The translations under genes were made by a program, and so were the position numbers. From an uncultured virus (IMG/VR IMGVR_UViG_3300021400_001748) (Duplodnaviria; Heunggongvirae; Uroviricota; Caudoviricetes): a DNA stretch of 20,000 nt. The notes under the pieces were generated by a model. The model searched no databases and was not told the origin of the DNA. It saw only the letters and a program-made list of their open reading frames with translations. The DNA is taken from IMG/VR virus record IMGVR_UViG_3300021400_001748; one strand, 5' to 3'. Positions within the stretch are counted from its first letter, which is position 1; each line of letters starts with the position of its first letter. Below are positions 2-19,691 of the stretch, one piece after another.

Positions 2-163
2 ACAAACCAGAATGGATACTTTAACGTTGCTGTTGGTATTCAGTATGGTCATGGCACCAGAAATGGTGGATATGTTCAGGGCATAGACTACATTAATCCA
101 GCTATGAGGCCAATATTTGAACAGATAGCAAATGAAATTTGGGCGGAGGTGATTTCGGATTGA
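2..163 (+). CDS. 3' end of HK97 gp10-like neck/tail-completion protein (partial, runs off window start)
   Basis: Frame 2 reads TNQNGYFNVAVGIQYGHGTRNGGYVQGIDYINPAMRPIFEQIANEIWAEVISD* (TGA 161-163). The YGHGTRNGG..YINPA pattern resembles the HK97 gp10 family. The stop overlaps the TTG start of the next gene. Not in the ORF track. Confidence 0.75.
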   Translation, partial: TNQNGYFNVAVGIQYGHGTRNGGYVQGIDYINPAMRPIFEQIANEIWAEVISD

Positions 164-6100: not shown

Positions 6101-6405
6101 AAAATGGGATGTATTCTGCAGGTGCAATGCTTTCATCTGCAGGCAGTGCGTTCGGTGCAGGAGCTTTTTCCTATGCGAGATCCAATTTCCCAGGATCTTA
6201 TAGTTATGGACTTACATCTCAAGGAGCTTCAAACGTAGAAGTTGTGAGAGCTCTTAATGGCGTCAGATCTGATCTTAAGGATCTTGGAAACGCTTTATCG
6301 GCCATGGATATGGTTCTTGATAATGGCGTCCTTGTAGGCCAGATGGGAACCGGTATGGACAGGCAACTTGGAACTATTCAAAAGTTTAAAGAAAGATGGG
6401 CGTAA
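160..6405 (+). CDS. Tail tape measure protein (~2081 aa)
   Basis: Very long Ala/Gly-rich helical ORF with an N-terminal tape-measure domain (DTAYGLDSAAKVASQL...GQGKL...QLESRG), a hydrophobic middle region, internal repeats and a C-terminal NSPSKV motif; lies directly before Dit. Start moved from 139 to TTG 160 because GGAGGTG (145-151) lies 8 nt upstream. Confidence 0.93.
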   Translation: MSNVDERIVEMKFENHLFEKNVNTSIGTLEKLKNALKFNGVDKNLADLDKSVNSMDFSKLAAGVDALNKRFSTMGIVGMTVIQDLTRAAENLAHKMAFGLFNQMKTGGWSRATNIDQAKFQLEGLGVAWNDIVADIEYGVNDTAYGLDSAAKVASQLVASGITIGDNMQAALRGVSGVAAMTNSSYDEIGAIFTTVAGQGKLMTMQLRQLESRGLNVAANLGKASGKLAGKTESEIRDMVTKGKIDFQTFADAMNEVFGPQAKKANETFEGSLANMKSALSRIGAEFATPIRKNMIPIFNKLREIFNDIKKQKLGQVFKDFESFAFKMSKFAYGVLDTLHKNLGFVDTLAGGIHSIWIWFDELMQGVSPVWKFFTKAEEKAEVAATAISKVGLTLEVVEDLAQRVLAGEFGNEQARWDAIDELTGIENAGLAVQNRVNELLNCSKRYSEAAEIVEDSTAKEQEALEKAGESIKDYAEAQDEIQTTAQSMIETLKKAFSEIDQAAIFEWAATVIGGFRAALTILGRTVMAVAAGALEPLIEIGKTIAGVFGKVTATIAEWIMDFSKYMKESGGYAKIQTVTNKVFKTFSSILKGTVKVGSKVFDILGNTIGKVGSIIDQAKFRFQVFMELLKNTEGYKRLTEAFDNIGSKLTELKDNAFSKIQDALNRFMETDVELPKINLMDLANSVSDGIVWMLDKINELKTSILDFYNTNIIGEGGLMEKLQNFFSSENLQAGIQNFIELINEAREAIVKFFTGTSGAEGEAGETTSGLQKFLDDVNRIFEQIKQTVVDLVSGGVEDFNEFVNRIKESIPSLDEVVKKIMHIVGEITAINFIRAVNGIMTSISHISGILRNVKGAIGSFKWFFRSLSLAVSGLALLEIAGAIGILALSFKLLGSLSWDQFKVAAAAIIVITGALAVLFAVIGHFSAGKGGKVIETPLQSLTEMVKTLSSTISKAMKGIGRAATIAAFAYAVKTIYDVIMSVVDMPWYKVKTGLKLVGAILAEIVIAMAALNLLGGHKSTGMQRIGQAVQIVAFAAAIKLIANAIAQIAELDASKAEQGINAIKTISLSLSALMVSSKFSKLSLKPIIGLGLLFAAIAYAFSQMAGMDPDEMKATAGALTSIIGTLSLLVYSLGRMFKSSGSGDIKSTVVSFIALGALLGEMALIFSLMQDMDPLKMAAQADAMAKVLRSLALVMWATSKIGSTGSIGGDIKGAVGTSFSADIILANVTGIMAIAGLINENAPWLKDLMDNGIPLLNKVAEGIGEFFGTLISHALLNPLKDTFGDMGDGITSFMSSLQEFFTGTAQIDTSGLDSVKGVLEVFGSLATAGVLSAVTEWFLGENSMKTFGDQLIDFGQALVVYSAIITSGNGIDEEAVASSARAAQMLSDFANTLPNEGGWLGAIVGENNISEFANQLVGFGTELVKYSAIITSGNGIDEAAVTASARAATMIAEFANKIPNEGGVLSSLTGDNTLAQFAAGLEPFATAMVTYSDIIKNGNIDSAAVENSANAATMISKFARSIPNQGGKIAEWVGDNTLSQFAGELVPFATELVKYSAIITSGKGIDSDAVEASAAAGSILASFADAIPNSGGYLAAWIGDNTLSQFGATLVPFAEDLKSYSEACTGLDMTDAIAATGAISDLVALFNQINAEGGLLGAEQTGSKLSEIEDIVSSLFTNFAWALEDVDDVTSVSDAISNLGKKIGETMSKGLAEGIKSTEGGTDLQDAFSGMIQKMINGADGKAGDLSGLAESIVASLGTIGDAITTSLGADNLSATIVPELTAALTEMFATINSKQPIFRTAGNNLVNALAGGVRQGRSLVTAALQAIGIAGFNAINAYQSRFRTVGRNLAAGLAGGIRQGRNEVVNAARDVVAAANTAAQQTAGENSPSKVWDGFGAYMDEGMANGIRKNVGLIVSAAKGSVNAANKSIEGDLSSGMDRVTDNLYNQLIAVYQYINSVINESTNINPVITPVVDLSQVQNGMYSAGAMLSSAGSAFGAGAFSYARSNFPGSYSYGLTSQGASNVEVVRALNGVRSDLKDLGNALSAMDMVLDNGVLVGQMGTGMDRQLGTIQKFKERWA
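4180..5025 (+). repeat. ~4.3 tandem 64-65 aa repeats inside the tape measure gene
   Basis: Unit G[DE]N..S.F...L..F...LV.YSAIITSG.GID..AV..SA.AA.M...FA..IPN.GG. Exact 36-nt DNA repeat at 4242-4277 and 4437-4472; GATAATACTCTTTCACA at 4765 and 4960. Both pairs are 195 nt apart. Confidence 0.95.
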
Positions 6406-6416
6406 GCTCAAACGTT

Positions 6417-6453
6417 AGAGGCAGGTACTAATTGTCGGTATCTGCCTCTTTTT
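6417..6453 (+). terminator. Intrinsic terminator after the tape measure gene
   Basis: AGAGGCAGGTAC (6417-6428) / GTATCTGCCTCT (6438-6449) form a 12-bp stem with one G-U pair, followed by a T run. Confidence 0.75.
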
Positions 6454-6472
6454 ACTAAGAAAGGTGGGCTGA

Positions 6473-7435
6473 ATGAAAGGCAATAATAACTATAATTATT
6501 ACGCGATTCAGTTTATCCCGGATGATAAGGATATTTATACAGCTTCTGCACTTGCTAAAAGTCCGCCTGAACTTCAGTGGAACGGAATAAACACTTGGAA
6601 GTCGTGGCATCTTATTCCTTCGTCTCGTCCGGTTATAAACCCGCCTACAATCAAATCGAATTACATTGACATTCCGGGCGGTAACGGAACTATTGACGCC
6701 AGTACAATTCTTACCCCCTATCCAGTCTATAACGATAGAGAGGGAAGCATTGAATATTATGTCACAAGAAATTATGACTCATATGATTCTTGGACAAAGG
6801 TATATCATAATATATTGAATTATCTTGGCGGAAAGAAGTTCAAAGTGATTCTGGAAGAAGATCCTGCCCATTACTATCGAGGAAGAGTCAATGTAAATCA
6901 ATGGAAATCTGAAAAAGATTGGTCCAAGATAACACTCGACTATCATCTTGAGCCGTTTAAATACGAGGTAGTGTCCTCGACTGACAGGTGGCTTTGGGAT
7001 CCATTTAGTTTTATTGACGGTGTCATAACTCCTGAGGTAAATGGCCGAACAATTTATGACAGATTTGTTATTAACAGTTCGAATCGTGAGCACATCGCCG
7101 TCAGAAACTATAATGACAGTAATCCTATATATGGAGCTAAGATGGAAATTACTCCTGGAACAGCTCCTTTTAGCCCGACTTTTTCTATAAGATGCGACAC
7201 GAATATAGTTTCTGGTAATCATACATGGATGCATGTCCTTCAAGTTAGACAGTATTCAAATCATCTTGAGAAGATTAGTGAAACGGAACTCAAGTTCACC
7301 GACAATACTATGATGACAAAAAGATTCTATGACATGACATTCTACGAAAAAGATTATGATGAATTTATATTCTTCGAGACACCTGCCAATTACCAGTTTA
7401 CGGTAACAGTTAATTTCAGGAGAGGGTGGCTCTAA
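6473..7435 (+). CDS. Distal tail protein (Dit)-like, 320 aa
   Basis: Directly follows the tape measure gene. Motifs YIDIPGGNG.ID, EDP.HYY.GR, ITLDY..EPFKY and WLWDPF are typical of Firmicutes siphophage Dit proteins. Confidence 0.85.
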   Translation: MKGNNNYNYYAIQFIPDDKDIYTASALAKSPPELQWNGINTWKSWHLIPSSRPVINPPTIKSNYIDIPGGNGTIDASTILTPYPVYNDREGSIEYYVTRNYDSYDSWTKVYHNILNYLGGKKFKVILEEDPAHYYRGRVNVNQWKSEKDWSKITLDYHLEPFKYEVVSSTDRWLWDPFSFIDGVITPEVNGRTIYDRFVINSSNREHIAVRNYNDSNPIYGAKMEITPGTAPFSPTFSIRCDTNIVSGNHTWMHVLQVRQYSNHLEKISETELKFTDNTMMTKRFYDMTFYEKDYDEFIFFETPANYQFTVTVNFRRGWL

Positions 7436-8916
7436 TGTATATCATAAAAGCTGGAGACGAAGTCGTTCACAATGGAATGATTAATGATAGAGATTATGTA
7501 GCTCTTTCTGGATCTATGAAAAATGAATTCAATAGAGCTGGAACGTTGTCATTTTCTGTCCCTGCAAATAACTATGCTTCTTCACATAATCTGATTAAGA
7601 AACTGTCCAGTGTCATAAAAGTATTTGACAAGTACGGAAATCTTAAATGGAAAGGAAGAGTTCTTGATACTGCTAAGGATTTCTATGGCCGCATGACGTA
7701 TAACTGTGAAGGATGGATGTCTGTTCTTAACGATTCTATAGTACGTCCTAATGTTGGAGCTGGCGATAAAGATAAAGGCATCATAAAACCTCCTGCTACC
7801 ATAATGCGAGCTCTTATCGATAACCATAATAGCCAGGTAAATAGCTCAAAACAGTTAACATTAAACATGATCGGCATCTCAGCTAGTGTTAATGTAACTC
7901 TTCCATATCCAAATTATGAGACCACTCTTGATTATATTCAGAGTAATTTCCTTTCAAATGAAGATATTGGCGGATTAATGTGGGTTGCAGATAACACGCT
8001 TAATTATTACTCTGACGGTGCTTTTTACAATAGATCGTCAAAGCAGTCGATAGTATTTGGAAGGAATCTACTCGATCTTGTTGATACGAAAGACGCTTCT
8101 GAAGTTTTTACTGTAGTACTTCCAGTTGGAAAAGATGGGCTCCTTTTATCTAGTACAGCAGGATATGATATTTATCCAGCTCCTGGAGAAGCAAATGTAC
8201 CATCAGCAGTAACTAATGCCATTAATACGTTTGGACGAATTGTTAGATATGAAGACTTTTCCGACGTTGAATCTGTTTCTATATTAAAGAATAAAGCGAA
8301 AGATTTGCTACTGAAGAGTATCGAAGAAACTTCTATTATAGAAGCAACAGCATTCGATTTAGGTCTCACAGATCGTGATGCGGGAAGTGTAGATGTTGGA
8401 ACTTACGGCGAAGTACATTCAGTTCCTCACGGATTATCCGAAGCGTATCTTTGCACAGCTGCTGAAATTGACATCTGTAATCCGGCTAACTCTAAATTTA
8501 CGTTTGGAACAAATCCAGATACGTTAACGACAAAGCAGACAAAGCTTGCAAGAAAAGTGAATGCAAATGTCAGGTATACTGAAGAAGTTCAGAGAATTGA
8601 CATGTCATATTCTATATTTGAGGAAACGGTGTCAGTTAACAATATTACATTTTATAGAGCTGGAAGAAATGTCTTCTTATCATTTGCTGTCAAGTTTTTG
8701 AAAGTAGTTCCGAACGACAGGGCATCTATACTCACGTTTAACAATAAATATGCACCTCCTTCAATAGAGGATTCGTACGATGCCGCTACAGATGAAAATA
8801 CGGATTTGACATATAGGATTCGTGTCACTGCTGACGGCAAGATTCAGATCTTTAACAATAGCGAGATTGCAGTAGATCATATAGTAACTGGCGTTGTTAG
8901 TTGGGATTATCAATAA
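7435..8916 (+). CDS. Tal / prophage-tail (baseplate hub) protein with a small C-terminal beta-domain
   Basis: Follows Dit. Motifs AGTLSF..P, W.GRV, CEG....LNDS, FG.NLLD, T.V.P.GKDG and FG.I....F.DV match the prophage tail (endopeptidase-like) family. ATG 7435 overlaps the Dit stop (TAATG); GTG 7426 is an alternative start. Confidence 0.82.
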   Translation: MYIIKAGDEVVHNGMINDRDYVALSGSMKNEFNRAGTLSFSVPANNYASSHNLIKKLSSVIKVFDKYGNLKWKGRVLDTAKDFYGRMTYNCEGWMSVLNDSIVRPNVGAGDKDKGIIKPPATIMRALIDNHNSQVNSSKQLTLNMIGISASVNVTLPYPNYETTLDYIQSNFLSNEDIGGLMWVADNTLNYYSDGAFYNRSSKQSIVFGRNLLDLVDTKDASEVFTVVLPVGKDGLLLSSTAGYDIYPAPGEANVPSAVTNAINTFGRIVRYEDFSDVESVSILKNKAKDLLLKSIEETSIIEATAFDLGLTDRDAGSVDVGTYGEVHSVPHGLSEAYLCTAAEIDICNPANSKFTFGTNPDTLTTKQTKLARKVNANVRYTEEVQRIDMSYSIFEETVSVNNITFYRAGRNVFLSFAVKFLKVVPNDRASILTFNNKYAPPSIEDSYDAATDENTDLTYRIRVTADGKIQIFNNSEIAVDHIVTGVVSWDYQ

Positions 8917-8927
8917 CGGGGTAAACT

Positions 8928-10487
8928 ATGGCAGAATATTACGGAATAGACGTTTCATCAAACAATGGAACTCCTGATTGGTCGAAAGTTTCAGGAGTTT
9001 CTTTTGTTATCATGAGAATTACTCAGAGATACGGAATTGATTCGAAATTTGAGCATAACTACGAAGGAGCTACAGAGGCTGGTCTTAAGCGAGGTGTATA
9101 TAGAGTATCCTATGCTACGAATGCCGAAGAGAGTAAGAAAGAAGCCGAAGATGTAATAAAGACATTATCCGGCAGAAAACTTAACTATCCGATCTTCCTT
9201 GATCTTGAATGGGAAGAACAGATGAAATTCGGCAAAGATAGGCTGGCTGAGATCATCAAGGCTTTCCGTGAAGTAGTTTTAAGTAACAGTTACAAGTTCG
9301 GGATCTACACGAATAAGAACTGGTATGACACTCTGATTTCTGATGAAATTAAATCAAAATGCGAGTTCTGGATTGCTTCTGTTCCGTCTACTGCTAAAGA
9401 CAATGGAACAAAGCAGGAAAGACTTAATCCGGGATTTGGTGTAGGCTGGCAGTATTCATGGGCTGGATCAGTTCCTGGAATCAAAGGAAATGTCGATATG
9501 GATGTTTTCTATAATGACTTTTCAGAAGGGGCAAAGGTGGAAGAACCATTGAGTGTTACAGCAAAAGATGCAATTCAGGTAGCCGAGGGATGGGTCGGCA
9601 GGAAAGAAGCAGACGGATCCCATAGAGCTATTATCGATATTTACAATTCTCATAAGCCTTTAGCAAGAGGCTATAAAGTTAAATATACAGATCAGTGGTG
9701 TGATACATTTATTTCTGCTGTCTATATTAGTCTTTCGGCAGTGGATCTGATCGGTGGCACTGAATGTGGTGTTGAAGAACATGTGAAACTCTTTAAGAAG
9801 GCTGGAATCTGGGTTGAAGATGGCAATACTACTCCTGAAGAAGGATGGCTTATTGTTTTTAACTGGGACGATTCTACGCAGCCTAATGACGGATACTCTG
9901 ATCACATTGGGATCGTTGAGAAAGTATCTGGTAAAACGATCACCACGATTGAAGGCAACTATAAAGATTCTGTAGCAAGAAGAACTCTTCAGGTTGGAAA
10001 CGGCTATATTAGAGGCTATGCAAGACCTAAGTATGCTGCTACAGCTTCTTCTGACATCTCTGAAGTTAAGCCTGAGAAGCCTGCTAGTTCTGGATCATCT
10101 GTTATTTCAGTAATTCCATCCACTTCTCATGCAACTCTGCGACTTAATTCTCCCGAGTATAACGAGATCAAGACGCTGCAGACCTATCTTAATAAGTTTG
10201 GATATGGTCTCGTTGTCGACGGACTCTTTGGCATTAAGACATACCTTGCTGTTCGTGACTTCCAGAAGACTCATGATCTGTTTGTTGACGGCATCTGTGG
10301 TCCTAACACCTGGAAGAAGCTTGATAGTCTCGTTGGAAGTTCAGGTAAGAAGTCTGTAAATGAGATAGCTAAAGAAGTAATAGCAGGCAAATGGGGAAAC
10401 CAGCCAGATCGCGAGAAGAAGCTTAAAGTTGCTGGGTATAATTATGCAGAAGTTCAAAATGCAGTAAATAAATTGCTTAAGAAGTAA
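8928..10487 (+). CDS. Multidomain endolysin: GH25 muramidase + CHAP amidase/peptidase + PG_binding_1 + CW_7
   Basis: GH25: GIDVS..NG, FLDLE, WQYS..G.V.GI.GNVD.D. CHAP: WCD.F.S and DHIGIVE...TIEGN. PG_binding_1: LQ..LN..GY.L.VDG.FG..T..AV..FQ..H.L.VDGICGP.TW. CW_7: EIAKEVIAGKWGN..R...L...GY.Y..VQ..VN. Confidence 0.92.
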   Translation: MAEYYGIDVSSNNGTPDWSKVSGVSFVIMRITQRYGIDSKFEHNYEGATEAGLKRGVYRVSYATNAEESKKEAEDVIKTLSGRKLNYPIFLDLEWEEQMKFGKDRLAEIIKAFREVVLSNSYKFGIYTNKNWYDTLISDEIKSKCEFWIASVPSTAKDNGTKQERLNPGFGVGWQYSWAGSVPGIKGNVDMDVFYNDFSEGAKVEEPLSVTAKDAIQVAEGWVGRKEADGSHRAIIDIYNSHKPLARGYKVKYTDQWCDTFISAVYISLSAVDLIGGTECGVEEHVKLFKKAGIWVEDGNTTPEEGWLIVFNWDDSTQPNDGYSDHIGIVEKVSGKTITTIEGNYKDSVARRTLQVGNGYIRGYARPKYAATASSDISEVKPEKPASSGSSVISVIPSTSHATLRLNSPEYNEIKTLQTYLNKFGYGLVVDGLFGIKTYLAVRDFQKTHDLFVDGICGPNTWKKLDSLVGSSGKKSVNEIAKEVIAGKWGNQPDREKKLKVAGYNYAEVQNAVNKLLKK

Positions 10488-10499
10488 GGAGGTGCAACA

Positions 10500-10991
10500 G
10501 TGGAAGATAGTAGAAACATTATTAAAGCTATTGATGCCTTGACTTTAAAAGTAGGCGGAGAAGTAGTCGATAGTAAAAATATTACCGAAGCTATCGATAA
10601 TTTAAAAGCCGTGTATGATCAGAAAGCTATCAGGATCGATAAGACTTTAACACAGGAAGGTCTTGCTGCTGACGCTAAGGCTGTCGGGGATGTGAGAGAT
10701 AAAATCACAAAATTGTCATATAGTTTTTCTTACAATCAAGTCGTATCAATAACGTCATCGTCAGTAGTTAGCATGTGGTTTGGCAGTTTGATCTCAATTG
10801 GTGAACATCTACTATATGTGTATATTAAAGGCACTACTGCTGTGGTCAATGCAATATGCGGGAGTGCTTCTTCAATAGCTATAGAAAGCTTAGATAACGG
10901 AATATCTATAAAAAATAATGCTGCTGGAACTAGGGGCAGATTAATGATATTCCCAGATGATAAAGAGCTTCTTAATATAACGGTTTTGTAA
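10500..10991 (+). CDS. Hypothetical protein, 163 aa, possible short fibre/accessory structural protein
   Basis: GTG start with AAGGAGGTG RBS. N-terminal duplication DSRNIIKAIDAL/DSKNITEAIDNL, fibre-type motif IDKTLTQEGLAADAKAVG, beta-rich C-terminus. Confidence 0.65.
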   Translation: MEDSRNIIKAIDALTLKVGGEVVDSKNITEAIDNLKAVYDQKAIRIDKTLTQEGLAADAKAVGDVRDKITKLSYSFSYNQVVSITSSSVVSMWFGSLISIGEHLLYVYIKGTTAVVNAICGSASSIAIESLDNGISIKNNAAGTRGRLMIFPDDKELLNITVL

Positions 10992-10997
10992 TTATAT

Positions 10998-11390
10998 ATG
11001 TTTATTTATTTAAACATGAATCCAGAAGCAAAAGAGACATTCGACTGTGTAATCAGAGCTGTCTCTTTTGTTTTGGGATTAGACTGGGATACAACGTTCC
11101 TCTACATAGCTGTCGAGTGTCTAATTCATCATGACATGCCAGAGCAGAACTATATTTGGGCAGGATTACTTAGGAAGATGGGGTTTAAACGTTACATTAT
11201 TCCTGATACCTGCCCTGTTTGCTATACGGTGAAAGATTTCTGCTATGACCATCCTTATGGAACTTATCTTCTTGTGATCATAAGTCATGGAGAAGGCGGT
11301 GGACATGTCGTAGCTGTAGAGGATGGAAATTACTATGATATTTGGGACTCTGGCGATGAAGTACCAACATATTATTGGGTGAAAGCATAA
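10998..11390 (+). CDS. Putative small papain-fold cysteine peptidase, 130 aa
   Basis: NP......DC17VIRA at a helix start, GH103VVAV on a strand and YYD114.WDSG give the Cys-His-Asp order of papain/C39-like peptidases. Extra CPVC motif. No clear SD sequence. Confidence 0.65.
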   Translation: MFIYLNMNPEAKETFDCVIRAVSFVLGLDWDTTFLYIAVECLIHHDMPEQNYIWAGLLRKMGFKRYIIPDTCPVCYTVKDFCYDHPYGTYLLVIISHGEGGGHVVAVEDGNYYDIWDSGDEVPTYYWVKA

Positions 11391-11408
11391 GAGAAGGGAG
11401 ATCGAATT

Positions 11409-11894
11409 ATGTCATATAATTATTCACAGTATCAACCTGGATACTATCAGGGCAATGGAAATGTGTATCCTCAGCAGAATCCGTATTATCAAACTGCTGT
11501 GAATACTCAGCAATATTCCGGCGGTGGAATGCAAACAGCTGCTCCAATGGCTCAAATGCAGCAGCCTATGAGTCAGCAGAGTGCTTCATCTGGAATTAAT
11601 TGGGTTCAGGGTAGAGCAGGTGCAAATTCGTTTTATGTTGCTCCTGGACAGTCGGCTCTTTTGATGGACAGTGAAGATTCTGTTCTCTATGTGAAGTCCG
11701 TTGATATGACTGGAAGACCGATGCCTCTTGAAATCTATGATCTGGTTAAGAGAGACAGCGTTGTCGATGTTCCTCAGATTTCTCAGAGACAAGCTCCAGC
11801 ATCACAGCCTACACCGGATATGAGCCAATATGTAAAGGCTTCTGATCTTGAATCTATGGTCGAGAAGTACGTGAATAAAGCTTTGGAGAAATGA
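11409..11894 (+). CDS. Hypothetical protein, 161 aa, Q/Y/N-rich low-complexity N-terminus plus small beta domain
   Basis: AAGGGAG RBS. The first ~60 aa are Q/Y/N/G/P-rich, followed by INWVQG..GA.SF.VAPG....LMDSE....Y.KS.D..G.P and a short C-terminal helix. Confidence 0.8.
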   Translation: MSYNYSQYQPGYYQGNGNVYPQQNPYYQTAVNTQQYSGGGMQTAAPMAQMQQPMSQQSASSGINWVQGRAGANSFYVAPGQSALLMDSEDSVLYVKSVDMTGRPMPLEIYDLVKRDSVVDVPQISQRQAPASQPTPDMSQYVKASDLESMVEKYVNKALEK

Positions 11895-11904
11895 GGCTAT
11901 TTGT

Positions 11905-11970
11905 ATGACAACTGAAGTCATTGTAATAATTGTACTTCTTTTGATGATATGGGTTATAGCTACAATGTAA
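11905..11970 (+). CDS. Unannotated 21-aa single-transmembrane peptide MTTEVIVIIVLLLMIWVIATM
   Basis: GAGG (11893-11896) lies 8 nt before ATG 11905; stop TAA 11968-11970. It fills the gap between two operon genes and is almost wholly hydrophobic. Confidence 0.6.
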   Translation: MTTEVIVIIVLLLMIWVIATM

Positions 11971-11982
11971 GAGGTGAATAAC

Positions 11983-12210
11983 ATGCCAAATCCCTTATTC
12001 AGTAGATTTGGAGGAGGATCAGGTCCAAAAATGCCTGGTCCTTTTTCTAATTTTATGAACATGATGAGCCAGTTCAAACAGTTCAGAAGTCAGTTTCAAG
12101 GGGATCCTAGGCAGCAAGTTCAGGAGCTTTTGAATTCTGGACAGATGACTCAGGAGCAATTTAATCAGTTAAGTAACATGGCCAACCAATTTAAAGATAT
12201 GCTCGGATGA
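11983..12210 (+). CDS. Hypothetical Met/Gln-rich helical protein, ~75 aa
   Basis: GAGGTG (11971-11976) precedes ATG 11983, a better start than GTG 11974. MPNPLF...FKQF...GDPRQQVQELLNSGQMTQEQFNQL. Confidence 0.8.
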   Translation: MPNPLFSRFGGGSGPKMPGPFSNFMNMMSQFKQFRSQFQGDPRQQVQELLNSGQMTQEQFNQLSNMANQFKDMLG

Positions 12211-12398
12211 TAATGCGTGCTGTCATCTGACATCTTTATGCATGAGTATGCGAACAAAAGGTCATGCTTTTAAGTTTCTTTACAATAGAATATGGAGCTC
12301 GTAGGGCTTGAATTGACTTGCTGCTTGAATTGCATCTTTTAGCCATAACATAAAGTGTTTACAAGTCCGTTTAGCTTTTGATTTATCTAAATTAATTC

Positions 12399-12446
12399 AA
12401 AATGCGAGCCAATTTAAGAGTTTCTAAGTAACTCGTTAAGCGTTTT
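12399..12446 (+). promoter_or_regulatory. Stem-loop immediately upstream of the RBS of the 277-aa gene
   Basis: AAAATGC (12399-12405)/GCGTTTT (12440-12446), TTAA/TTAA and GAGTT (12418-12422)/AACTC (12430-12434) pair up. AAGGAGG follows at 12451. Confidence 0.45.
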
Positions 12447-12467
12447 CTAAAAGGAGGAATATTTAAT

Positions 12468-13301
12468 ATGTCCTTGGTAAACGATGGAGCTGGTAATATG
12501 GTCATGCCTGTAGGTCCTATGGGCGGATATGGAAATGGTAGTCTTGGATGGGGAGGAGATGGATCTTTCTGGATCATTATTCTTTTCCTGTTTGCTATGA
12601 TGAATGGCAACTGGGGCGGCTTTGGAAACAATGGCGGTGGTGCTATGCCGTACATCATGAATAATACCACGAATAGCGACATGCAGAGAGGATTCGATCA
12701 GCAGGCTATTATGGGCGGCATCAACGGAATTAACACTGCTCTTGCCAATGCTGAAGTTTCTAGATGTAATGCTCAGGCTAACATTCTTCAGACACTTAAC
12801 CAGAATCAGACAGCTGCTAATCAGGCAATGAATTCTCTTGCCATGAGTCTTCAGAACTGTTGCTGTGAGAATAGAGCAGGTCTTGCTGATCTTAAGTACA
12901 CTGTTGCTACAGAGGCTTGTGCTGATCGCCAGGCTGTTACGAATGCTCTGTTCGATGTGACTACTGCTAACAACAATAATACGCAGCAGCTCGCGAATGC
13001 AATCAATAACGGTATTCAGTCTATTCAGGATAAGCTTTGCAGTCTTGAGCTTGAAGGTGTTAAGAATCAGCTTGCTCAGGCAAATAGAGAGAATGCAGCT
13101 CTTCAGTCTCAGCTTGCTGTATCTAATCAGAATGCTCTCATTCAGCAGGGATTTGCAAACGAGGTAGACAATCTCTACAATCGTCTGAATAATTGTCCGG
13201 TTCCTACCACTCCTGTTTATGGTCGCACTCCGATCTTTACCTGCAATAACGGCATGAGTGGATGCGGATGTGGCTGTGGCGCTAACGGCTTCGTAGCATA
13301 A
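12468..13301 (+). CDS. Gly/Asn/Cys-rich protein, 277 aa: hydrophobic segment, coiled coil, GCGCGC tail
   Basis: Strong AAGGAGG RBS. Gly-flanked FWIIILFLFAMM segment, long N/Q/A-rich helical region with CCCENR, C-terminal P.P.TP.Y...C..GCGCGC. 11 Cys in total. Confidence 0.85.
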   Translation: MSLVNDGAGNMVMPVGPMGGYGNGSLGWGGDGSFWIIILFLFAMMNGNWGGFGNNGGGAMPYIMNNTTNSDMQRGFDQQAIMGGINGINTALANAEVSRCNAQANILQTLNQNQTAANQAMNSLAMSLQNCCCENRAGLADLKYTVATEACADRQAVTNALFDVTTANNNNTQQLANAINNGIQSIQDKLCSLELEGVKNQLAQANRENAALQSQLAVSNQNALIQQGFANEVDNLYNRLNNCPVPTTPVYGRTPIFTCNNGMSGCGCGCGANGFVA

Positions 13302-13313
13302 GGAGGCGATACT

Positions 13314-13769
13314 ATGGCTGAATTTACTTATAATCCGGTTCAGCTTGTGCAGCCTAATCAGCCCGTTATTCTTAATGATTCAATCAGGTGTAATAAGGGC
13401 TATGTGCTTCACAGAAATGAATCTGGACTTGTAACTCTCCGTGGTATTGTGAATAATCCTTGCTCTTGCTTTGCCAGGTATCAAGTGACATTTAATGCCA
13501 ATATTGCTGTACCTGAAGGCGGAACAGTAGGACCTATTGCCGTCGCTCTTGCTATCGATGGTGAATCTATTCTTACAAGTAGGGCTATTGTAACACCAGC
13601 AGCTGTTGATGACTATTTCAACGTGACTTCTACTGCATTCATTACAGTTCCTGCTGGGTGCTGTATGCATGTTTCTGTGGAGAATGTATCGGTTGGTGCG
13701 ACTCCTGCTGATCCTGCTCCTGCGATCAATGTACAGAATGCGAATCTCGTAGTCACAAGAACAGCTTAA
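13314..13769 (+). CDS. Beta-sandwich protein, 151 aa (BclA-CTD/C1q-like suspected)
   Basis: AAGGAGG RBS. All-beta alternation (YQVTFNANIA, IAVALAIDGE, NVTSTAFITV, VSVEN, NANLVVTR) resembling BclA C-terminal jelly-roll domains; 5 Cys. The fold is inferred. Confidence 0.7.
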   Translation: MAEFTYNPVQLVQPNQPVILNDSIRCNKGYVLHRNESGLVTLRGIVNNPCSCFARYQVTFNANIAVPEGGTVGPIAVALAIDGESILTSRAIVTPAAVDDYFNVTSTAFITVPAGCCMHVSVENVSVGATPADPAPAINVQNANLVVTRTA

Positions 13770-13786
13770 GAAAGGAGGGAGATCCC

Positions 13787-14182
13787 ATGAAAGAACTTGA
13801 GAATCTGAAAGAATTATATTTGGATGAAATTAAGGCTATCAACAAAAAGGGAGAACTCACTCCTACTGATGCTGAAGCTGCAAAGAAAGCGCTCGAAGCT
13901 ATCGAAAAGATCAATAAACTTTGCTGTGACGAAGAGTACGAGGACGAAGGATATTCTGAAAGGATGTATCCTCGCTACTCTATGAATCGTTCCTACAGAA
14001 GCATGATGCCTGAGATGAGACCGTATGACTATGATGATCATATGAATCGCACTGGTTATAGTGAAAGAAGAGGCAGAAGTGCTACCACAGGACGTTATAT
14101 TTCAAGACACGCTGGAAGTGATAACGATAACATGGTTATTGATGACATTATCGCTAAGCTTGAGAACATGAAGAACTATTAA
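13787..14182 (+). CDS. Hypothetical protein, 131 aa
   Basis: AAAGGAGG RBS. Helical charged N-terminus, an R/Y/M/D-rich disordered middle and the motif RRGRSATTGRYISR. Confidence 0.8.
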   Translation: MKELENLKELYLDEIKAINKKGELTPTDAEAAKKALEAIEKINKLCCDEEYEDEGYSERMYPRYSMNRSYRSMMPEMRPYDYDDHMNRTGYSERRGRSATTGRYISRHAGSDNDNMVIDDIIAKLENMKNY

Positions 14183-14224
14183 CTTTTAAACAGTATGTAA
14201 TGATTTAACCTGGAGGCATATCGA

Positions 14225-14785
14225 ATGTCCATAGATGAAATCTTTTCCAAAATGTCTGAGCATATGGTAAAAGGAATGATGGTTCATGAGCAGCTTATGA
14301 ATTCCTATTTATATTTGGGACTCAAAGGCTATGCTGCTTGTCACGAGTATCATTATCTTGAAGAGACAAAGGGACATATACGGCTTAACACATACAAGAT
14401 TGAACATTATGATTCGCTTGTACTGGGAACGTTTGATAGATCTGATGTTCCTGAAATTGTCCCTAAGTCATGGTTTAACTTCAAGCGGAATACAGTTGAC
14501 ATTAATACTCGTAAACAGGCAATAGCAGCTGCTTATGATGAATGGATTAATTGGGAGACTGAAACTAAAGCTCTATACGAGGAGATCTATTCGGATCTGA
14601 TTAATCAAGGTGAAATCTCTTTATCTGAATTCGTGAAAGAATACATTTTAGACGTTGAGGAAGAGTTGGTTTATGCTAAATCTGAGAGACTCTCTAAATC
14701 ATCTATGGACTTCGACATAGTCTCCATTTTAGAAGAGCAAGAGCAGTATGAACGTTCTTTTAAAAAGAAGATCCGTAAAGGGTAA
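14225..14785 (+). CDS. Ferritin-like four-helix bundle protein, 186 aa
   Basis: GGAGG RBS. Helix A/B pattern H..L...Y..LGL.GYA..H.....EE..H..L..Y and helix C/D pattern W..WE..T..LY......L...G......V......V.EE follow the ferritin superfamily. Confidence 0.7.
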   Translation: MSIDEIFSKMSEHMVKGMMVHEQLMNSYLYLGLKGYAACHEYHYLEETKGHIRLNTYKIEHYDSLVLGTFDRSDVPEIVPKSWFNFKRNTVDINTRKQAIAAAYDEWINWETETKALYEEIYSDLINQGEISLSEFVKEYILDVEEELVYAKSERLSKSSMDFDIVSILEEQEQYERSFKKKIRKG

Positions 14786-14815
14786 ATCATTTCATACTTC
14801 TCGTGTGGAGGACGT

Positions 14816-15163
14816 ATGGAAATTCTGAGTTATATCTCTGCACACTGGATTGAGTGGCTCTTCATGATCGTTACTGCTATCATAGGATTCGGTTATAGAA
14901 CTGTTCTTAAGAGATTGCAAGAAGAAAAGCAGCGAAATGAAGCCATTGCTGAAGGTGTGCAGAGCCTTTTAAGAGAAAGTATTGTAAACAGTTACAACAA
15001 GTATCAGGATAAAGGCTTTTGTCCGATTTATGCGAAAGAAAGTATTCGTAAAGTTTATTTAGCATATCATAACCTTGGCGGAAATGATGTGGCTACAAAT
15101 CTTTACAATAATGTTCTTAACATGAGGGAAGAGCCAGAAGGTAAAGAGAAGAATGAGCAATAA
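14816..15163 (+). CDS. Holin-like/lysis-associated membrane protein, 115 aa
   Basis: One N-terminal TM segment (WIEWLFMIVTAIIGFGY), a coiled coil and a Y..Y..LGGN motif of the type seen next to holins in Firmicutes phages. GGAGG RBS. Confidence 0.65.
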   Translation: MEILSYISAHWIEWLFMIVTAIIGFGYRTVLKRLQEEKQRNEAIAEGVQSLLRESIVNSYNKYQDKGFCPIYAKESIRKVYLAYHNLGGNDVATNLYNNVLNMREEPEGKEKNEQ

Positions 15164-15383
15164 AGTATATGATATTTTAAAATTCATTGCACAGATCGTA
15201 CTGCCTGCCATTGCAACTTTTTATGTGACAATTGCAGGTATCTGGAATCTGCCACTTGGGGATGAAATCAGTCGTACTGTTATGGCCATTGATACTCTTC
15301 TTGGTGCGATTCTTATGATCTCGACTGCTTCGTATAAGAAAGGACTTTTAGAAGAGAAGCCAGAAGTAGAAGCAGAGGAATAA
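15153..15383 (+). CDS. Holin, phage Dp-1 type, 76 aa
   Basis: MSNKVYDILK.IA.IVLPA.ATFY......W.LP...I..T..AIDT.LGA.L.IS is the recognisable Dp-1 holin pattern, with two TM segments and a charged C-terminus. Confidence 0.85.
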   Translation: MSNKVYDILKFIAQIVLPAIATFYVTIAGIWNLPLGDEISRTVMAIDTLLGAILMISTASYKKGLLEEKPEVEAEE

Positions 15384-15386
15384 CAA

Positions 15387-15426
15387 AAGGCTGATGGTAG
15401 GTGAAATAATGCTTATCATCAGCCTT
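15387..15426. terminator. Long hairpin after the holin (probable terminator)
   Basis: AAGGCTGATGGTAGGT / GCTTATCATCAGCCTT form a 16-bp stem including G-U pairs, with A/T-rich flanks on both sides. Confidence 0.65.
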
Positions 15427-15448
15427 ATTATATTTGAAAAATAAAGCT

Positions 15449-15472
15449 CACAGCTTTTACATAGACTATAAT
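15449..15472 (+). promoter_or_regulatory. Promoter-like motif copy 1 (C.CA.CTTTTACAT...CTATAAT) upstream of the spike gene
   Basis: CACAGCTTTTACATAGACTATAAT, 19/24 identical to 19731-19754. Ends in a perfect -10 TATAAT and lies just after a terminator. Confidence 0.6.
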
Positions 15473-15507
15473 TTTTTAATTCGCATGTAAAAGAAAGGAG
15501 AAGGTAA

Positions 15508-18042
15508 ATGGCAGATATTCAAACTTATTTGCAGCAGATTCTTGATGCTGTATATGGTGAAGAAGTTCGTGGAAGTATTCACGACGCTATATCTCAAATG
15601 AATTCAGATCTAGAAGATGCTATTCGTGATGATTTAAATCCGCTTGCTTTTAAAGGAGATCTTGGAATCAGCGAAGGAAGCAATTACAATTTAAACAATT
15701 TAATTTCAGTGGATCAACGAGGAATTTGGAGGCTTTTGTCTTCTAAAGCGTATGCAGCAGTGCCATCAGATTATGATGGAACTAAAACCGGATATCTATT
15801 AGTTTATACATTCGGCGCTGATAACGTAGCTAGTAACATCAAACAGGAACTTCATTATTTTTCTGATAGCGGTGCAAACGCAAACGTTTATTGGTCTAGG
15901 GTATACTCTACTAATAATGGATGGCAGCCATGGCATAAAAGCGTTGATAATTCATTATCTCTTGAAGGTGCGGCTGCTGATGCTAAAGCTGTTAATACCG
16001 CTATAAATAATTTATTAAATGAGGTGAATACTGCCGAAGATGGTATACTTGGCGGGGATAGACAGTACTTAGATTGGAACGAAAGAGAAGCACACTCAAA
16101 CTATTGGTATGATCAAACTACAAATTCCATTAAGAAAAGTGCCACAACAGATGACTCATTTGGCACTTTTTATCCATTAGTTTTAAATGCTGGTACATAT
16201 TATCTTCATATGATAGCACCAGCATTGTCATATGTGAACACTACAAAAATATCTGAGCACAGCGGATATACCGAAATAAACTCTTATAACGGAACGCTCA
16301 CTCTTTCTGAAAAGTCAACATTATACTTAACAACTTATCATCCTCAGTCAGTAAGATGGAGCTATTCGATGCTGTCTACGTCTTACTTAACCAGCGGCAC
16401 AACATCTTCTAATAACTCATATAGATTCGGATATTACAATGAGTATTTATCTGCAGACAATGCATCTGACAAGTTATATGCAGCTAGAGTGCATAGCGAT
16501 TATGCATATTTTTCATCTCTTAGTCAAAATGCAAAGATTCAGTTTTGCAATTCTAATAAGCGAACAGCTAGCAGCTATTGGAACTACTATGATTCTATTA
16601 TGCACATTGGAACTGCAAATAATTACTGGCGATTTGATCCAATATATCTTCCGAAAGGATCCTATTATGGATACTATATTAGTAACGTATTTTCTGGAAT
16701 AGAAACATATGATAAACAATATACTAAACTTGTAGATTATCCAGGCTTTACAAGTAACGGAAGTAAAAGTACATTAGTACTAAATAATGATGCATTATTG
16801 TATATTACCGGCTTGTCAGAGCAAACCATGATATTTAATTACAATGAAGATGATAACACGTATAAGGACTTCGGTGTTTATGATGGGGACGGTATACATC
16901 ATAGTATATATGTCGGACCAACAAGACAATATACCACTATTATTTCTGCCATTCAGAGTATTCCTAGTGGTACGTGGCTTGGAAATCAGTATGACATATT
17001 TATTGATGACGGTACATATAATGAATACGAAGTTCGACCTGGTGACGGGGTAAATCTTATCGGACTAAGTGGAAACCGTGATTCTGTGAAAATAGTCGGA
17101 AAACTTCCGGCATCATCTGATAATCAGACAATTGAGGGTACGTGTACTGTAGTATTAACAAAGAGCAATGTGCTAAAAAACATTACAGTTACAGCTCAGA
17201 ATATGCGTTATCCTATACACTCTGAATCAGGAGGTATATATAAAAGATGGCGTCAGATATTGGAAAACGTTGCTGTTATACATAAAGGCACAGAAGAAGT
17301 ATCTGATTACAGATCTGAGCATGGGGATAGCTCAGTTGTTTGGACATCAACACATGCCTGGGGTGAAGGAGCTTCTGCAGAATCATATGCGGAATTCAAT
17401 AACTGCTACTTTGAAGGTGGGAATGCTCCATTTTATGTTCACGATTCTACAGCGACAGATAGTAACAAACCGTATTTGCACATTCTTAATAACTGTAAGA
17501 TAGTTAACAATAATCCTGATATGAGTGGCTATTGGAATACTGCTGTCATTATCGATAATAGTACAAATAGGAGCTGCAATAACAATACAGTAGAGATAAA
17601 CAATTGCAATTTTGGTAATGGCTGCGTCAGAATTACGAATACATATCCAATTATTGTAACGATTCATGGATGTAATAATGCTCCGGTTAGAGTTGACCAT
17701 ATAGAAAACGGGTATCCTGAAAGTGATTATGTAACATTAAAAAAGTATATTGGGAGCGCACAGTTACAATCAGGTGACATATTAAAATATGACAAGCATG
17801 TAAATTACGTATCTTTAGCCACAAGTTCTACGCCTATAGAATTAATAGCAGGAATGTATGTCGGAAGTTCAGCTAATACTGGAGATATCGTACAAGTTAT
17901 TTCCGGAACTTATGAAAACATTATACGAGGAGCATCTATCGGCACATTATATTATGCTGATAATAATGGAAAATTAGTTACACAAGGCACTATACCTATA
18001 GCTGTATCAATTGGTGAATTTGCTAAACTGTTAAGTAATTAA
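15508..18042 (+). CDS. Tail spike / receptor-binding protein with pectin-lyase-like beta-helix, 844 aa
   Basis: AAAGGAG RBS. N-terminal anchor I..AVYGEEVRGSIHDAI, a knob-like domain ending WSR.....GWQPW, and a GAAADAKAV linker. Then VGP.RQYTTI.SAI....IFIDDGTYNE...V.LIG followed by N/C-rich beta-helix-type rungs (FNNCYF, LNNCKI, INNCNF). Confidence 0.75.
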   Translation: MADIQTYLQQILDAVYGEEVRGSIHDAISQMNSDLEDAIRDDLNPLAFKGDLGISEGSNYNLNNLISVDQRGIWRLLSSKAYAAVPSDYDGTKTGYLLVYTFGADNVASNIKQELHYFSDSGANANVYWSRVYSTNNGWQPWHKSVDNSLSLEGAAADAKAVNTAINNLLNEVNTAEDGILGGDRQYLDWNEREAHSNYWYDQTTNSIKKSATTDDSFGTFYPLVLNAGTYYLHMIAPALSYVNTTKISEHSGYTEINSYNGTLTLSEKSTLYLTTYHPQSVRWSYSMLSTSYLTSGTTSSNNSYRFGYYNEYLSADNASDKLYAARVHSDYAYFSSLSQNAKIQFCNSNKRTASSYWNYYDSIMHIGTANNYWRFDPIYLPKGSYYGYYISNVFSGIETYDKQYTKLVDYPGFTSNGSKSTLVLNNDALLYITGLSEQTMIFNYNEDDNTYKDFGVYDGDGIHHSIYVGPTRQYTTIISAIQSIPSGTWLGNQYDIFIDDGTYNEYEVRPGDGVNLIGLSGNRDSVKIVGKLPASSDNQTIEGTCTVVLTKSNVLKNITVTAQNMRYPIHSESGGIYKRWRQILENVAVIHKGTEEVSDYRSEHGDSSVVWTSTHAWGEGASAESYAEFNNCYFEGGNAPFYVHDSTATDSNKPYLHILNNCKIVNNNPDMSGYWNTAVIIDNSTNRSCNNNTVEINNCNFGNGCVRITNTYPIIVTIHGCNNAPVRVDHIENGYPESDYVTLKKYIGSAQLQSGDILKYDKHVNYVSLATSSTPIELIAGMYVGSSANTGDIVQVISGTYENIIRGASIGTLYYADNNGKLVTQGTIPIAVSIGEFAKLLSN

Positions 18043-18301: not shown

Positions 18302-18490
18302 ATGAGTAAGTATAGAAAGAAGCCAGTTATTATTGAAGCATATTAAACTGATAAGGAACTTGACATTGAGACATTGGAGGGAAAAATGCATGCAAGCATC
18401 GGTGATTTTATTATCACTGGTGTTAATGGCGAGAAGTATCCATGCAAGCCGGATATTTTTGAGCAGACTTATGAAAAAGTCACCCCTTAA
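18302..18490 (+). pseudogene. KKPV..EA / TLEG / [18 protein letters not shown] small phage protein (PGDYG-like) with one in-frame TAA
   Basis: Reads [61 protein letters not shown]. Internal TAA at 18344-18346; AGGA SD at 18291-18294. Missed by the ORF track. Confidence 0.8.
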
Positions 18491-19691
18491 TCTTTGCCAA
18501 TTCCTTGTGAAGCCAAATGATATTTCTGGCGGTATAGACACGTTCAGTAATGTCCATGATTCTGTGACCAACAATTAATTTGATTGCATACTCATCTACT
18601 CCAGCTTCTTTAGCCATAGTGATGAAATGCTTTCTCCCATCGTGAGGCCTATGATCCGGATTGAGTTTAAGCTCACTTACCAGTTCCTTATATTTTACTT
18701 TCAAGATCTCATAACTTATAGGATACTTCGGTTTAAAGAACAGCTTACTCATTCCGGATTTAATAGCCTCAGTATACCATCTCTGCAGTATTGGTCTGAT
18801 CTTTTCGTGAATTGGCACCTCTCTATTCTTTCCTGCCTCAGTCTTGGATCCGCAGATAATAGACCAGTCTTTCATATTTACTTTCGATACGTCAATATTA
18901 CAAAGCTCATTAGGACGAAGACCTGAGTAGCACTGAAACACTATCATGTCAGTTACCCATGATTCACCTACCTTACTCCAGAGCTTCTTCATCTCTTCAT
19001 CTGTATATTTGATATGAGGCTTAACGGCATCATCATTACCGAACCCAGTCCTGATATCACGAGCGTAATTCCGATCTACGTATCCATACTCAACGGCGTA
19101 GTCCATCATCATTGAGATCGTATACTTTATATTTTTCTTTGTGTTATCTGAAGGGTATAGTGTCTTGTCATTCACCGTCTTATGAGCATCGTCAAGTAGT
19201 CTTCTAAGATCTGGTGTTTTAATTGACTGCACGAGCCTAAAGCCAATAACCTCTTCACAGTACTTCCAGGCTGCTTTAATGGCATCATACCTAGAATTAC
19301 TAACCTCCTGCCTATGAATCTCTACCCATCTCTCATATAGCTCATTCATAGTCATGTCATTGTCAAAGTCATACGGATTAGCATGATATTCTACGAGAGC
19401 TTTATAGGCTTCGTTATAGGTCTTAAAGTATGCTTCAGGCTTAAGTAGTTTCCCGATCGGATGCCCAAACTCATCTTTTCCAACAGACACCATGACTCTG
19501 AAAGGTTTACGGCGCTTCTTATCTGTGAGTTCAGTAATCCTGCCGAAACCATTAGGAAGTCTCATATGAGTAGTACGCTTCTTTTTAGGCGAGTCTTTTG
19601 GCTTGGCGAGCGATAGTGGCATACCACAGTTAGGACAAGAGATGGCTTTATCTGATACGTCATGACCACACTCTGGACATTTGATGAGCAT
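18480..19691 (-). CDS. int: Tyrosine integrase with N-terminal zinc ribbon, 403 aa
   Basis: Catalytic set SGLR, SKT.AG, HDGR, VGH and VYT; arm-binding-like RLPNGFG.I; N-terminal CPECG...CPNCG. AAGGAG RBS on the - strand at 19701-19706. Confidence 0.93.

Follow-up and report, generated by a model that had tools for sequence, protein, structure and literature searches.

A conserved six-gene cassette at the lysis genes of rumen and gut Clostridia phages, with a predicted exosporium-type knob as its most conserved product

The nearest known system to the gene cassette considered here is the anchoring of the exosporium nap and of F-ENA in the Bacillus cereus group, in which the Pro-rich leader at the N-terminus of collagen-like fibres is held by trimers of ExsF/BxpB (PMC12357932). 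The cassette lies at positions 10998-14785 of a 20,000-nucleotide (nt) stretch of DNA from an uncultured virus of the Caudoviricetes (IMG/VR record IMGVR_UViG_3300021400_001748), which was analysed as a whole and is called the window below; it comes from a temperate siphophage and comprises the late region. The cassette has in common with BclA and BxpB (ExsFA, ExsF) a predicted fold and the stand-alone hub format, its protein P151 being like BxpB/ExsFA a stand-alone protein of about 150-170 amino acids (aa) to which this fold is assigned. It differs from them in that the head of BclA sits behind a collagen-like stalk on one chain, whereas P151 stands alone and has no collagen repeat, in that their partner carries the exosporium leader TIGR03720, which was not listed for the putative partner P277, and in that BclA and BxpB belong to spore-formers, whereas the cassette is phage-encoded and not tied to spore-formers. 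The isopeptide linkage of BclA to BxpB put forward in mBio in 2011 was left aside, the paper being marked RETRACTED, and arguments from that mechanism are best avoided.

An earlier note on this DNA had described eight co-oriented open reading frames (ORFs) at this position as an uncharacterised, self-contained system that interrupts the lysis module, a view that was supported, the set proving conserved as well. The eight + strand ORFs and their coordinates were confirmed, lying between a four-domain lysin and a Dp-1-type holin, and the splitting of the lysis module is borne out by a cassette-free relative (L156; related loci carry L numbers), in which a Dp-1-like holin adjoins a lysin 60% identical to that of the window. 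The cassette is made up of a six-gene core in fixed order, one of the eight reported genes being doubtful and another one a local add-on. Its components are the following.

10998-11390, + strand: P130, core gene 1, predicted 130-aa papain-fold cysteine peptidase, phrog_3754
11409-11894, + strand: P161, core gene 2, Q/Y/N/P-rich N-terminus, small conserved middle domain and helical-looking tail, phrog_21718
11905-11970, + strand: P21, 21-aa hydrophobic transmembrane (TM) ORF, probably no cassette gene
11974-12210, + strand: P78, core gene 3, 78-aa M/Q/N/F-rich protein with GTG start, phrog_22984
12211-12467, no strand: non-coding spacer of 257 nt, separating the halves P130-P161-P78 and P277-P151-P131
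12468-13301, + strand: P277, core gene 4, Gly-rich N-terminus, hydrophobic segment, long helical region and Cys/Pro-rich tail, phrog_16490
13314-13769, + strand: P151, core gene 5, predicted stand-alone TNF/C1q-type jelly-roll knob, phrog_20016
13787-14182, + strand: P131, core gene 6, helical ends and a disordered S/Y/G/R/D-rich middle, relatives match phrog_28802
14225-14785, + strand: P186, accessory gene outside the conserved core, possibly ferritin-like

The intergenic gaps are, in order from P130 to P186, 18, 10, 3, 257, 12, 17 and 42 nt, and a GGAGG-type Shine-Dalgarno sequence precedes P161, P277, P151, P131 and P186, whereas P21 and P78 have weak sites and P130 has none. The compositions given in the earlier note for four of the proteins all checked out on recount: P277 has 11 Cys, including CCC and GCGCGCG, P151, all-beta in its predicted model, has 5 Cys, P161 has Q+N = 29 and Y = 14, and P78 has Q+N = 21 and M = 8. 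As read from the N-termini, none of the cassette proteins has a signal peptide.

Relatives of P151 numbered 154 in IMG/VR, where 80 loci were kept. A further 67 came from prokaryote genomes sampled at one per species, and these were without exception metagenome-assembled genomes (MAGs) from ruminants or guts. A tblastn search of 82 loci detected P151 in 82, P277 in 80, P130 in 72, P161 in 65, P78 in 45, P131 in 19, P186 in 5 and P21 in 0. Because the low-complexity members evolve fast, hidden Markov models (HMMs) made from five alignments and the P78 set were also searched in all six frames, the IMG/VR loci counted in this way being the 54 with at least 3.5 kb upstream and at least 1.5 kb downstream. 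All six core genes (P130, P161, P78, P277, P151 and P131) were found in 54 of these 54 loci, and the gene order of the window in 51 of them. The viral count is partly circular, since the HMMs were derived from those loci, and in 41 independent MAG loci, which had no part in the building of the HMMs, P130 was found in 39, P161 in 41, P78 in 33, P277 in 41 and P131 in 40. The six genes thus recur together and in order in the 54 IMG/VR loci and in most of the MAG loci, a set far beyond chance.

Two of the eight ORFs fall outside this core. For the 21-aa TM peptide, which had been counted as a member, 62 related loci offer no counterpart at that position, and in most of them the P78 homologue abuts P161; in the window P21 is in the same frame as P78, with one stop codon between them. 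Tiny hydrophobic ORFs elsewhere in the interval were seen twice, in L019 and L074. P186, for its part, clusters with L010 and L074 only, and homologues without the cassette occur beside tail genes in Clostridium phages CS266P1-P4, where no cassette-sized genes are annotated nearby. It had been described as a ferritin-like member of the set; its membership in the core is contradicted by the tblastn counts above, and the ferritin-like assignment stands as a lead only, since the nearest named Atlas clusters are Ferritin (PF00210, score 0.88), while no Pfam match at E <= 0.1 and no PDB sequence match better than E 0.2 was found.

The proposal that the 151-aa all-beta protein has a BclA/C1q-type fold was upheld by structural comparison, in which the best matches of the predicted model are exosporium proteins. 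P151 would accordingly adopt the TNF/C1q jelly-roll fold, at an identity of 11-15% to the C-terminal domains of BclA and F-BclA and to BxpB (1wck, 9h38, 8d02, 7r1m and 9h3d). Sequence models rendered little: the protein of the window matched 0 Pfam families, BclA_C (PF18573) was touched by one of 73 relatives at E 0.0027, below the cut-off, a P151 profile found nothing among PDB sequences, and no BclA_C was found in two carrier MAGs. P151 is the most conserved member of the cassette, at about 79%, compared with 22-55% for its supposed partners. In L154 and L155, P151 is about 51% identical to that of the window and the other cassette genes are 65-77% identical, a pattern from which the P151 gene appears to have been swapped independently of its neighbours. 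At least 7960 clusters of similar length represent P151 as a stand-alone protein, and only 2 longer forms were found, namely P0121, in which a P277-like rod is joined to residue ~52 of P151, and P0122, in which the N-terminus of a GH25 lysin is joined to the C-terminal half of P151. Both are probably deletions or assembly artefacts, since they have one member each; their use as 'Rosetta stone' fusions was rejected, as they are deletion chimeras with a truncated P151.

In P277 a hydrophobic stretch of ~13 residues (about 33-46) lies within Gly-rich flanks, and this segment, together with the flanking Gly and Trp, is among the best conserved parts of the protein. An alignment of 66 sequences showed conservation of W35 (nearly invariant), a CCC-E-N-R block, C191, C259 and a C-G-C tail. 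Residues 62-243 are Pro-free, and their hydropathy has a period of 3.6 (reached by 0.75% of shuffles), but not of 3.5, which supports a helical rod as the predicted form of this region. Of the Gly-TM-coiled-coil protein of the earlier note, the Gly-flanked hydrophobic segment, the long Pro-free helical region and the conserved Cys motifs were upheld; the heptad period of a canonical coiled coil was not seen. The first 73 residues contain no K or R, so that P277 has no classical signal anchor. Against PDB sequences the P277 profile had weak matches to helical tails only (ZorA, E 0.0049), and a PADLOC scan of ten proteins gave as sole match within the cassette that of the helical tail of P277 to ZorA2 (E 8.9e-4, 16 bits). 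A likeness of the hydrophobic segment to tiny sporulation membrane proteins was considered and dropped, as no such family appeared among the best 25 of 58 NCBIfam families.

The Cys-His-Asp protein of the earlier note, P130, is predicted to have a papain-like peptidase fold, nearest to that of C39 double-glycine peptidases, and D16, C17, H103 and D114 are invariant in an alignment of 61 sequences, Cys17, His103 and Asp114 being the residues expected of such a peptidase. It is like the C39 peptidases PCAT1 (7s5j), ComA (5xe8) and LahT-type (6mpz) in its modelled fold and in its Cys/His/Asp. It is set apart from the C39 family, the double-glycine leader peptidase domains of PCAT/AMS transporters, in that the sequence models of that family do not match it. 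C39 domains cleave the Gly-Gly leader of a neighbouring substrate and are usually fused to or located beside an ABC exporter; no ABC transporter was found within this window. The window protein has no Pfam family at E <= 0.1 and no NCBIfam match, no C39 model was among the best 25 of 28 Pfam families for its 61 relatives (E <= 1), and its profile matched among PDB sequences only a glutaredoxin-like CxxC stretch, at E 0.3. A short pre-sequence precedes the conserved motif of P277 and ends, immediately before that motif, with N in this window; many relatives have G at this place, and others have N, D, E or S.

P161, P78 and P131 are low-complexity proteins with short conserved blocks. That of P161 includes W65, V66, G68, A72, Y75, L85, D87 and K96; its profile rendered helical noise only against PDB sequences, and an Atlas search only unnamed viral clusters. 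P131 bears an R-G-R...G-R-Y motif in its disordered middle (alignment of 43 sequences), and by clustering it directly follows P151 in 46 of 48 loci.

The spacer between P78 and P277 is the joint between the two halves of the cassette, as deduced from insertions at this position in L010 and L074 and from permuted halves in three loci. The close relatives L010 and L074 carry extra DNA of 1.5-2 kb there, which in L074 includes a gene for a 517-aa protein (3878-5431) between the P78 and P277 homologues, and in 3 of the 54 IMG/VR loci the halves are swapped, P277-P151-P131 preceding P130-P161-P78. The 257 nt themselves gave no match in an Rfam scan or by blastn against related loci, and they fold no better than shuffled sequences (z -0.52). 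A weak terminator-like hairpin lies at 12203-12230, at the boundary between P78 and the spacer, and promoter calls across the region equal the expectation from shuffles (37 found vs 38.3 expected).

The six core genes move between phages with differing tail genes, and the core closes the late operon, being placed within the lysis genes or immediately behind them. We consider the cassette to be portable because relatives of the tail genes of this phage are rare in the 82 loci (Tal in 3, Dit in 1 and the tape measure protein, TMP, in 0), because of a relative from run X5 (DNA, another sample) that has 11136-15666 in common with the window at 90-95% identity and little of the flanks, lacking as well the gene for an 844-aa protein (positions 15881-18037 are missing), and because the two ends of P277 assort independently. 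Of 78 pairs, 50 have a short N-terminal P277 peptide of type A, 11 one of type B and 7 one of type C, 10 being unclassified, and the Pro/Cys-rich tail, which ends in C-G-C repeats, is of type V1 in 47 and V2 in about 30, with the combinations A/V1 in 26 and A/V2 in 23. Four phages with the same type of lysin have the cassette, two of them on the L010 and L074 contigs, and the cassette is dispensable, given that L156 lacks it. Single-sequence searches of IMG/VR with Tal and with the lysin found none or one distant match; an alignment query did find relatives.

Most relatives have, directly upstream of the cassette, a gene for a helix-turn-helix (HTH) protein of 65-90 aa, of sigma-70-region-4 or GerE type, which Pfam recognised in 19 of 47 loci (the scan took in 137 out of 155 computed upstream ORFs) and HMMs in 41 of 54; the GerE matches were in L023, L056 and L062. 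Before the HTH gene, a protein of about 96 aa with one TM segment and no family (u2) is encoded in 32 of 54 loci, and the two could be a membrane-tethered regulator pair. A protein of about 116 aa follows P131 in 26 of 54 loci. None of these three genes was found in this window; its cassette, lacking a private regulator, must be expressed together with the late operon. In 11 of the 47 relatives, the three ORFs before the cassette include one recognised as a lysin or holin. In L022 (3334-6812), two DUF285 proteins and a family-2 glycosyltransferase are encoded just upstream of the cassette, which is notable in view of the Thr/Pro/Ala-rich variable loop of P151.

The only cultured carrier among 50,697 phage records is Butyrivibrio virus Ceridwen (L001), which has the full nine-gene form at 6442-11034, all of it annotated as hypothetical, with an annotated terminator between the HTH and peptidase genes and an extra gene for a 264-aa protein between the P151 and P131 homologues. 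According to its description, the host of Ceridwen is Butyrivibrio fibrisolvens, and the authors saw lytic growth only and consider the phage probably virulent (PMC7372960). The presence of the full version in a phage observed in the lytic cycle only indicates that the cassette is used in lytic growth. B. fibrisolvens is not known to form spores. Of 5 cassette-bearing MAGs with long contigs, the same single genome has both Spo0A and SpoIVA above the curated cut-offs; their absence from the other 4 is soft, as the completeness of these MAGs is not given. The spore connection raised in the earlier note is disfavoured by these data and by the complete cassette of Ceridwen. The usable host labels of the carriers are monoderm Clostridia. 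Many cassette contigs were also binned in MAGs labelled as Bacteroidales, Spirochaetia, Alphaproteobacteria, Aeriscardovia, Oxalobacter and Chlamydiaceae (among such loci L083, L086, L092, L093, L096, L103, L106, L110, L113, L115, L135, L137 and L146), which may be mis-binned phage contigs or reflect a much wider host range, and we draw no claim on host range from them.

The reading that we tentatively favour, with a confidence that falls short of even, is that the cassette is a widespread, portable accessory unit of rumen and gut Clostridia phages that lies outside the basic virion or lysis kit and encodes a late, protease-matured rod-and-knob assembly freed at lysis, and no device of spore formation. 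All its products would be made in the cytoplasm late in lytic growth, as expected from the absence of signal peptides. P277 would form a long cysteine-stapled helical rod, with its Gly-flanked N-terminal segment buried in the membrane or in a protein core, P151 would form a trimer of the BclA/BxpB type and join the rod as a knob or hub, P130 would cut a Gly-rich stretch of one of the cassette proteins and so mature the assembly, and P161, P78 and P131 may serve as scaffold or matrix. Lysis would then free the rod-and-knob structure, which could serve as an adhesive or coat resembling a nap once it has left the dead cell. RNA-library contigs from two studies lie on P277, P186 and the tape-measure gene, in one study also on P131 and in one on Dit and P844 (the 844-aa protein behind the holin), a weak hint at co-expression of the cassette with late genes.

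Several points weigh against such an assembly. The periodicity of P277 is not the 3.5 heptad signal of a coiled coil. The exosporium leader TIGR03720 was not listed for the P277 of the window (NCBIfam, E <= 10), where short low-complexity motifs may be filtered, and was absent as well among the best 25 of 58 NCBIfam families for 66 P277 relatives (E <= 10). Columns of P151 showed no clear covariation with the type of the N-terminus or of the C-terminus of P277, mean Cramer's V being 0.26 and 0.28, and the conservation of P151 suggests a conserved outside target rather than mere self-assembly; the conservation of P151 beside fast-evolving partners is as yet explained by none of the five readings weighed here. 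The RNA data are contigs for which DNA carry-over is possible, and they can neither rank genes nor prove transcription. A further proposal, in our view improbable, takes the cassette as a self-assembling coat kit, an exosporium-like system in a vegetative cell doomed to lyse: rods, BxpB-like hubs and a low-complexity matrix would come together in the cytoplasm at a late stage of infection, be trimmed by the cassette's peptidase and leave at lysis as a thiol-rich nap or matrix, which would stick to virions or debris and harden through disulfides on exposure to oxygen; if true, it would shelter the phage or help it pass from one anaerobic gut host to the next.

Of the four rivals to a rod-and-knob assembly freed at lysis, an accessory of lysis or egress is a possible if unlikely one. 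P277 would attack the membrane from inside at lysis by means of its hydrophobic segment and rod, with P151 and the peptidase as partners, and this would suit the position of the cassette, which in this window interrupts the lysis module and in at least 11 of 47 relatives adjoins lysins or holins, as well as the conservation in P277 of the hydrophobic segment, its flanking Gly/Trp and the Cys, and the single-TM protein u2 in front of the cassette in 32 of 54 loci. P277 presumably resembles the i-spanin Rz and protease-primed class I fusion proteins, with which it has in common an N-terminal hydrophobic segment, a long helical region, conserved Cys and a location in a lysis module; it differs from them in having labelled hosts that are monoderm, no lipoprotein partner and no positive-inside anchor. 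The labelled carriers being monoderm Clostridia, there is no outer membrane to fuse, the cassette is dispensable, as L156 illustrates, and neither the highly conserved TNF-like knob nor the trio of low-complexity proteins would be accounted for by a function in lysis. Somewhat less probable again is a decoration of the virion, the rod and knob making up an optional head or tail fibre comparable to known fibres with TNF-like knobs, such as the short tail fibre of cyanophage A-1(L) (8ke9) and the C1q-headed collagen proteins of giant viruses (BFVD). The cassette differs from these in that rod and knob are separate genes, in its conserved knob, its own peptidase, its low-complexity proteins and often a regulator, and in that it moves between phages with unrelated tails. 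Because the tail modules of the carriers are unrelated, there would be no common docking partner; moreover, receptor-binding tips tend to be variable, yet here it is the knob that is best conserved, and a hydrophobic segment, a private peptidase and a private regulator (41 of 54 relatives) are unusual for fibres.

The remaining two rivals appear to us more doubtful. A bacteriocin-like or exclusion weapon, in which a C39-like peptidase would mature a Gly-rich, membrane-active protein that is released at lysis, or displayed, and kills or excludes competitors or phages, is improbable, even if the predicted fold of P130 is nearest to double-glycine leader peptidases, the N-terminus of P277 is Gly-rich and hydrophobic, a sigma-region-4-like regulator and a TM protein precede the unit in relatives and its location is typical of phage accessory cargo. 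No PADLOC family was found beyond the weak ZorA-tail-like match (E 8.9e-4, 16 bits), there is neither an ABC transporter nor an immunity-like gene, the residue before the P277 motif is often not Gly, and the carrier Ceridwen was seen in the lytic cycle only. Least probable of all, and to our mind hardly likely, is a remodelling of the spore surface, by which the cassette would be expressed in sporulating lysogens and build a BclA/BxpB-like nap on the spore of the host. It would account for exosporium proteins being the best structural matches of P151, for Cys-rich proteins with no signal peptides, as in mother-cell assembly, and for the small GerE/LuxR-type HTH genes before the cassette in L023, L056 and L062, and one of the five carrier MAGs does have Spo0A and SpoIVA. 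The full cassette is nonetheless present in Ceridwen, which is lytic on B. fibrisolvens, four of the five carrier MAGs, which may be incomplete, have neither Spo0A nor SpoIVA above the cut-off, the exosporium leader motif was not listed among the best 25 of 58 NCBIfam families, and the copy in the window has no regulator of its own and lies in the late operon. The probability left over after the favoured reading and these four rivals goes to an explanation not yet thought of.

The other features of the window agree with a location of the cassette in late genes, the lysin-to-holin interval holding the cassette with no terminator preceding it.

139-6405: tape-measure-size ORF, 2088 aa
6473-7435: Dit, phrog_33
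7426-8916: tail protein, phrog_3558
8928-10487, + strand: lysin of 519 aa with the domains GH25, CHAP, PG_binding_1 and CW_7
10500-10991: 163-aa protein, immediately before the cassette
14816-15163, + strand: P115, 115 aa with one TM segment, phrog_4105, overlapping the Dp-1-type holin
15153-15383, + strand: Dp-1-type holin (Phage_holin_Dp1, PF16938, E 1.5e-22)
15387-15426: terminator of 17 pairs, following the holin
15508-18042: P844, 844-aa protein, behind the holin terminator
18480-19691, opposite strand: integrase

The lysin gene starts 12 nt past the tail protein gene, and its distance to the holin is 4.3 kb. P844, which had only a weak pectinesterase-like Pfam match (E 0.0089), may be a fibre or depolymerase located outside the tail module. 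An A-A-D-A-K-A-V motif near the N-terminal parts is common to P844 and the 163-aa protein.

No paper describing the cassette was found in literature searches, which rendered mostly listings and abstracts, and no phage system has been described that brings together a knob of the exosporium type, a protease of its own and several prion-like proteins. In public metagenomes, P151 and P130 each make up at least about 8000 distinct clusters at 90% identity and have neither a Pfam family nor a name; the cassette is therefore among the most frequent multi-gene units of gut and rumen phages that are still uncharacterised. Ceridwen is a cultured model with a complete nine-gene version, so that the question can be addressed at the bench now. 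Whether the cassette turns out to be a lysis factor, an adhesive, a coat, a weapon or something else, it likely bears on how phages of Clostridia persist and spread in anaerobic guts.

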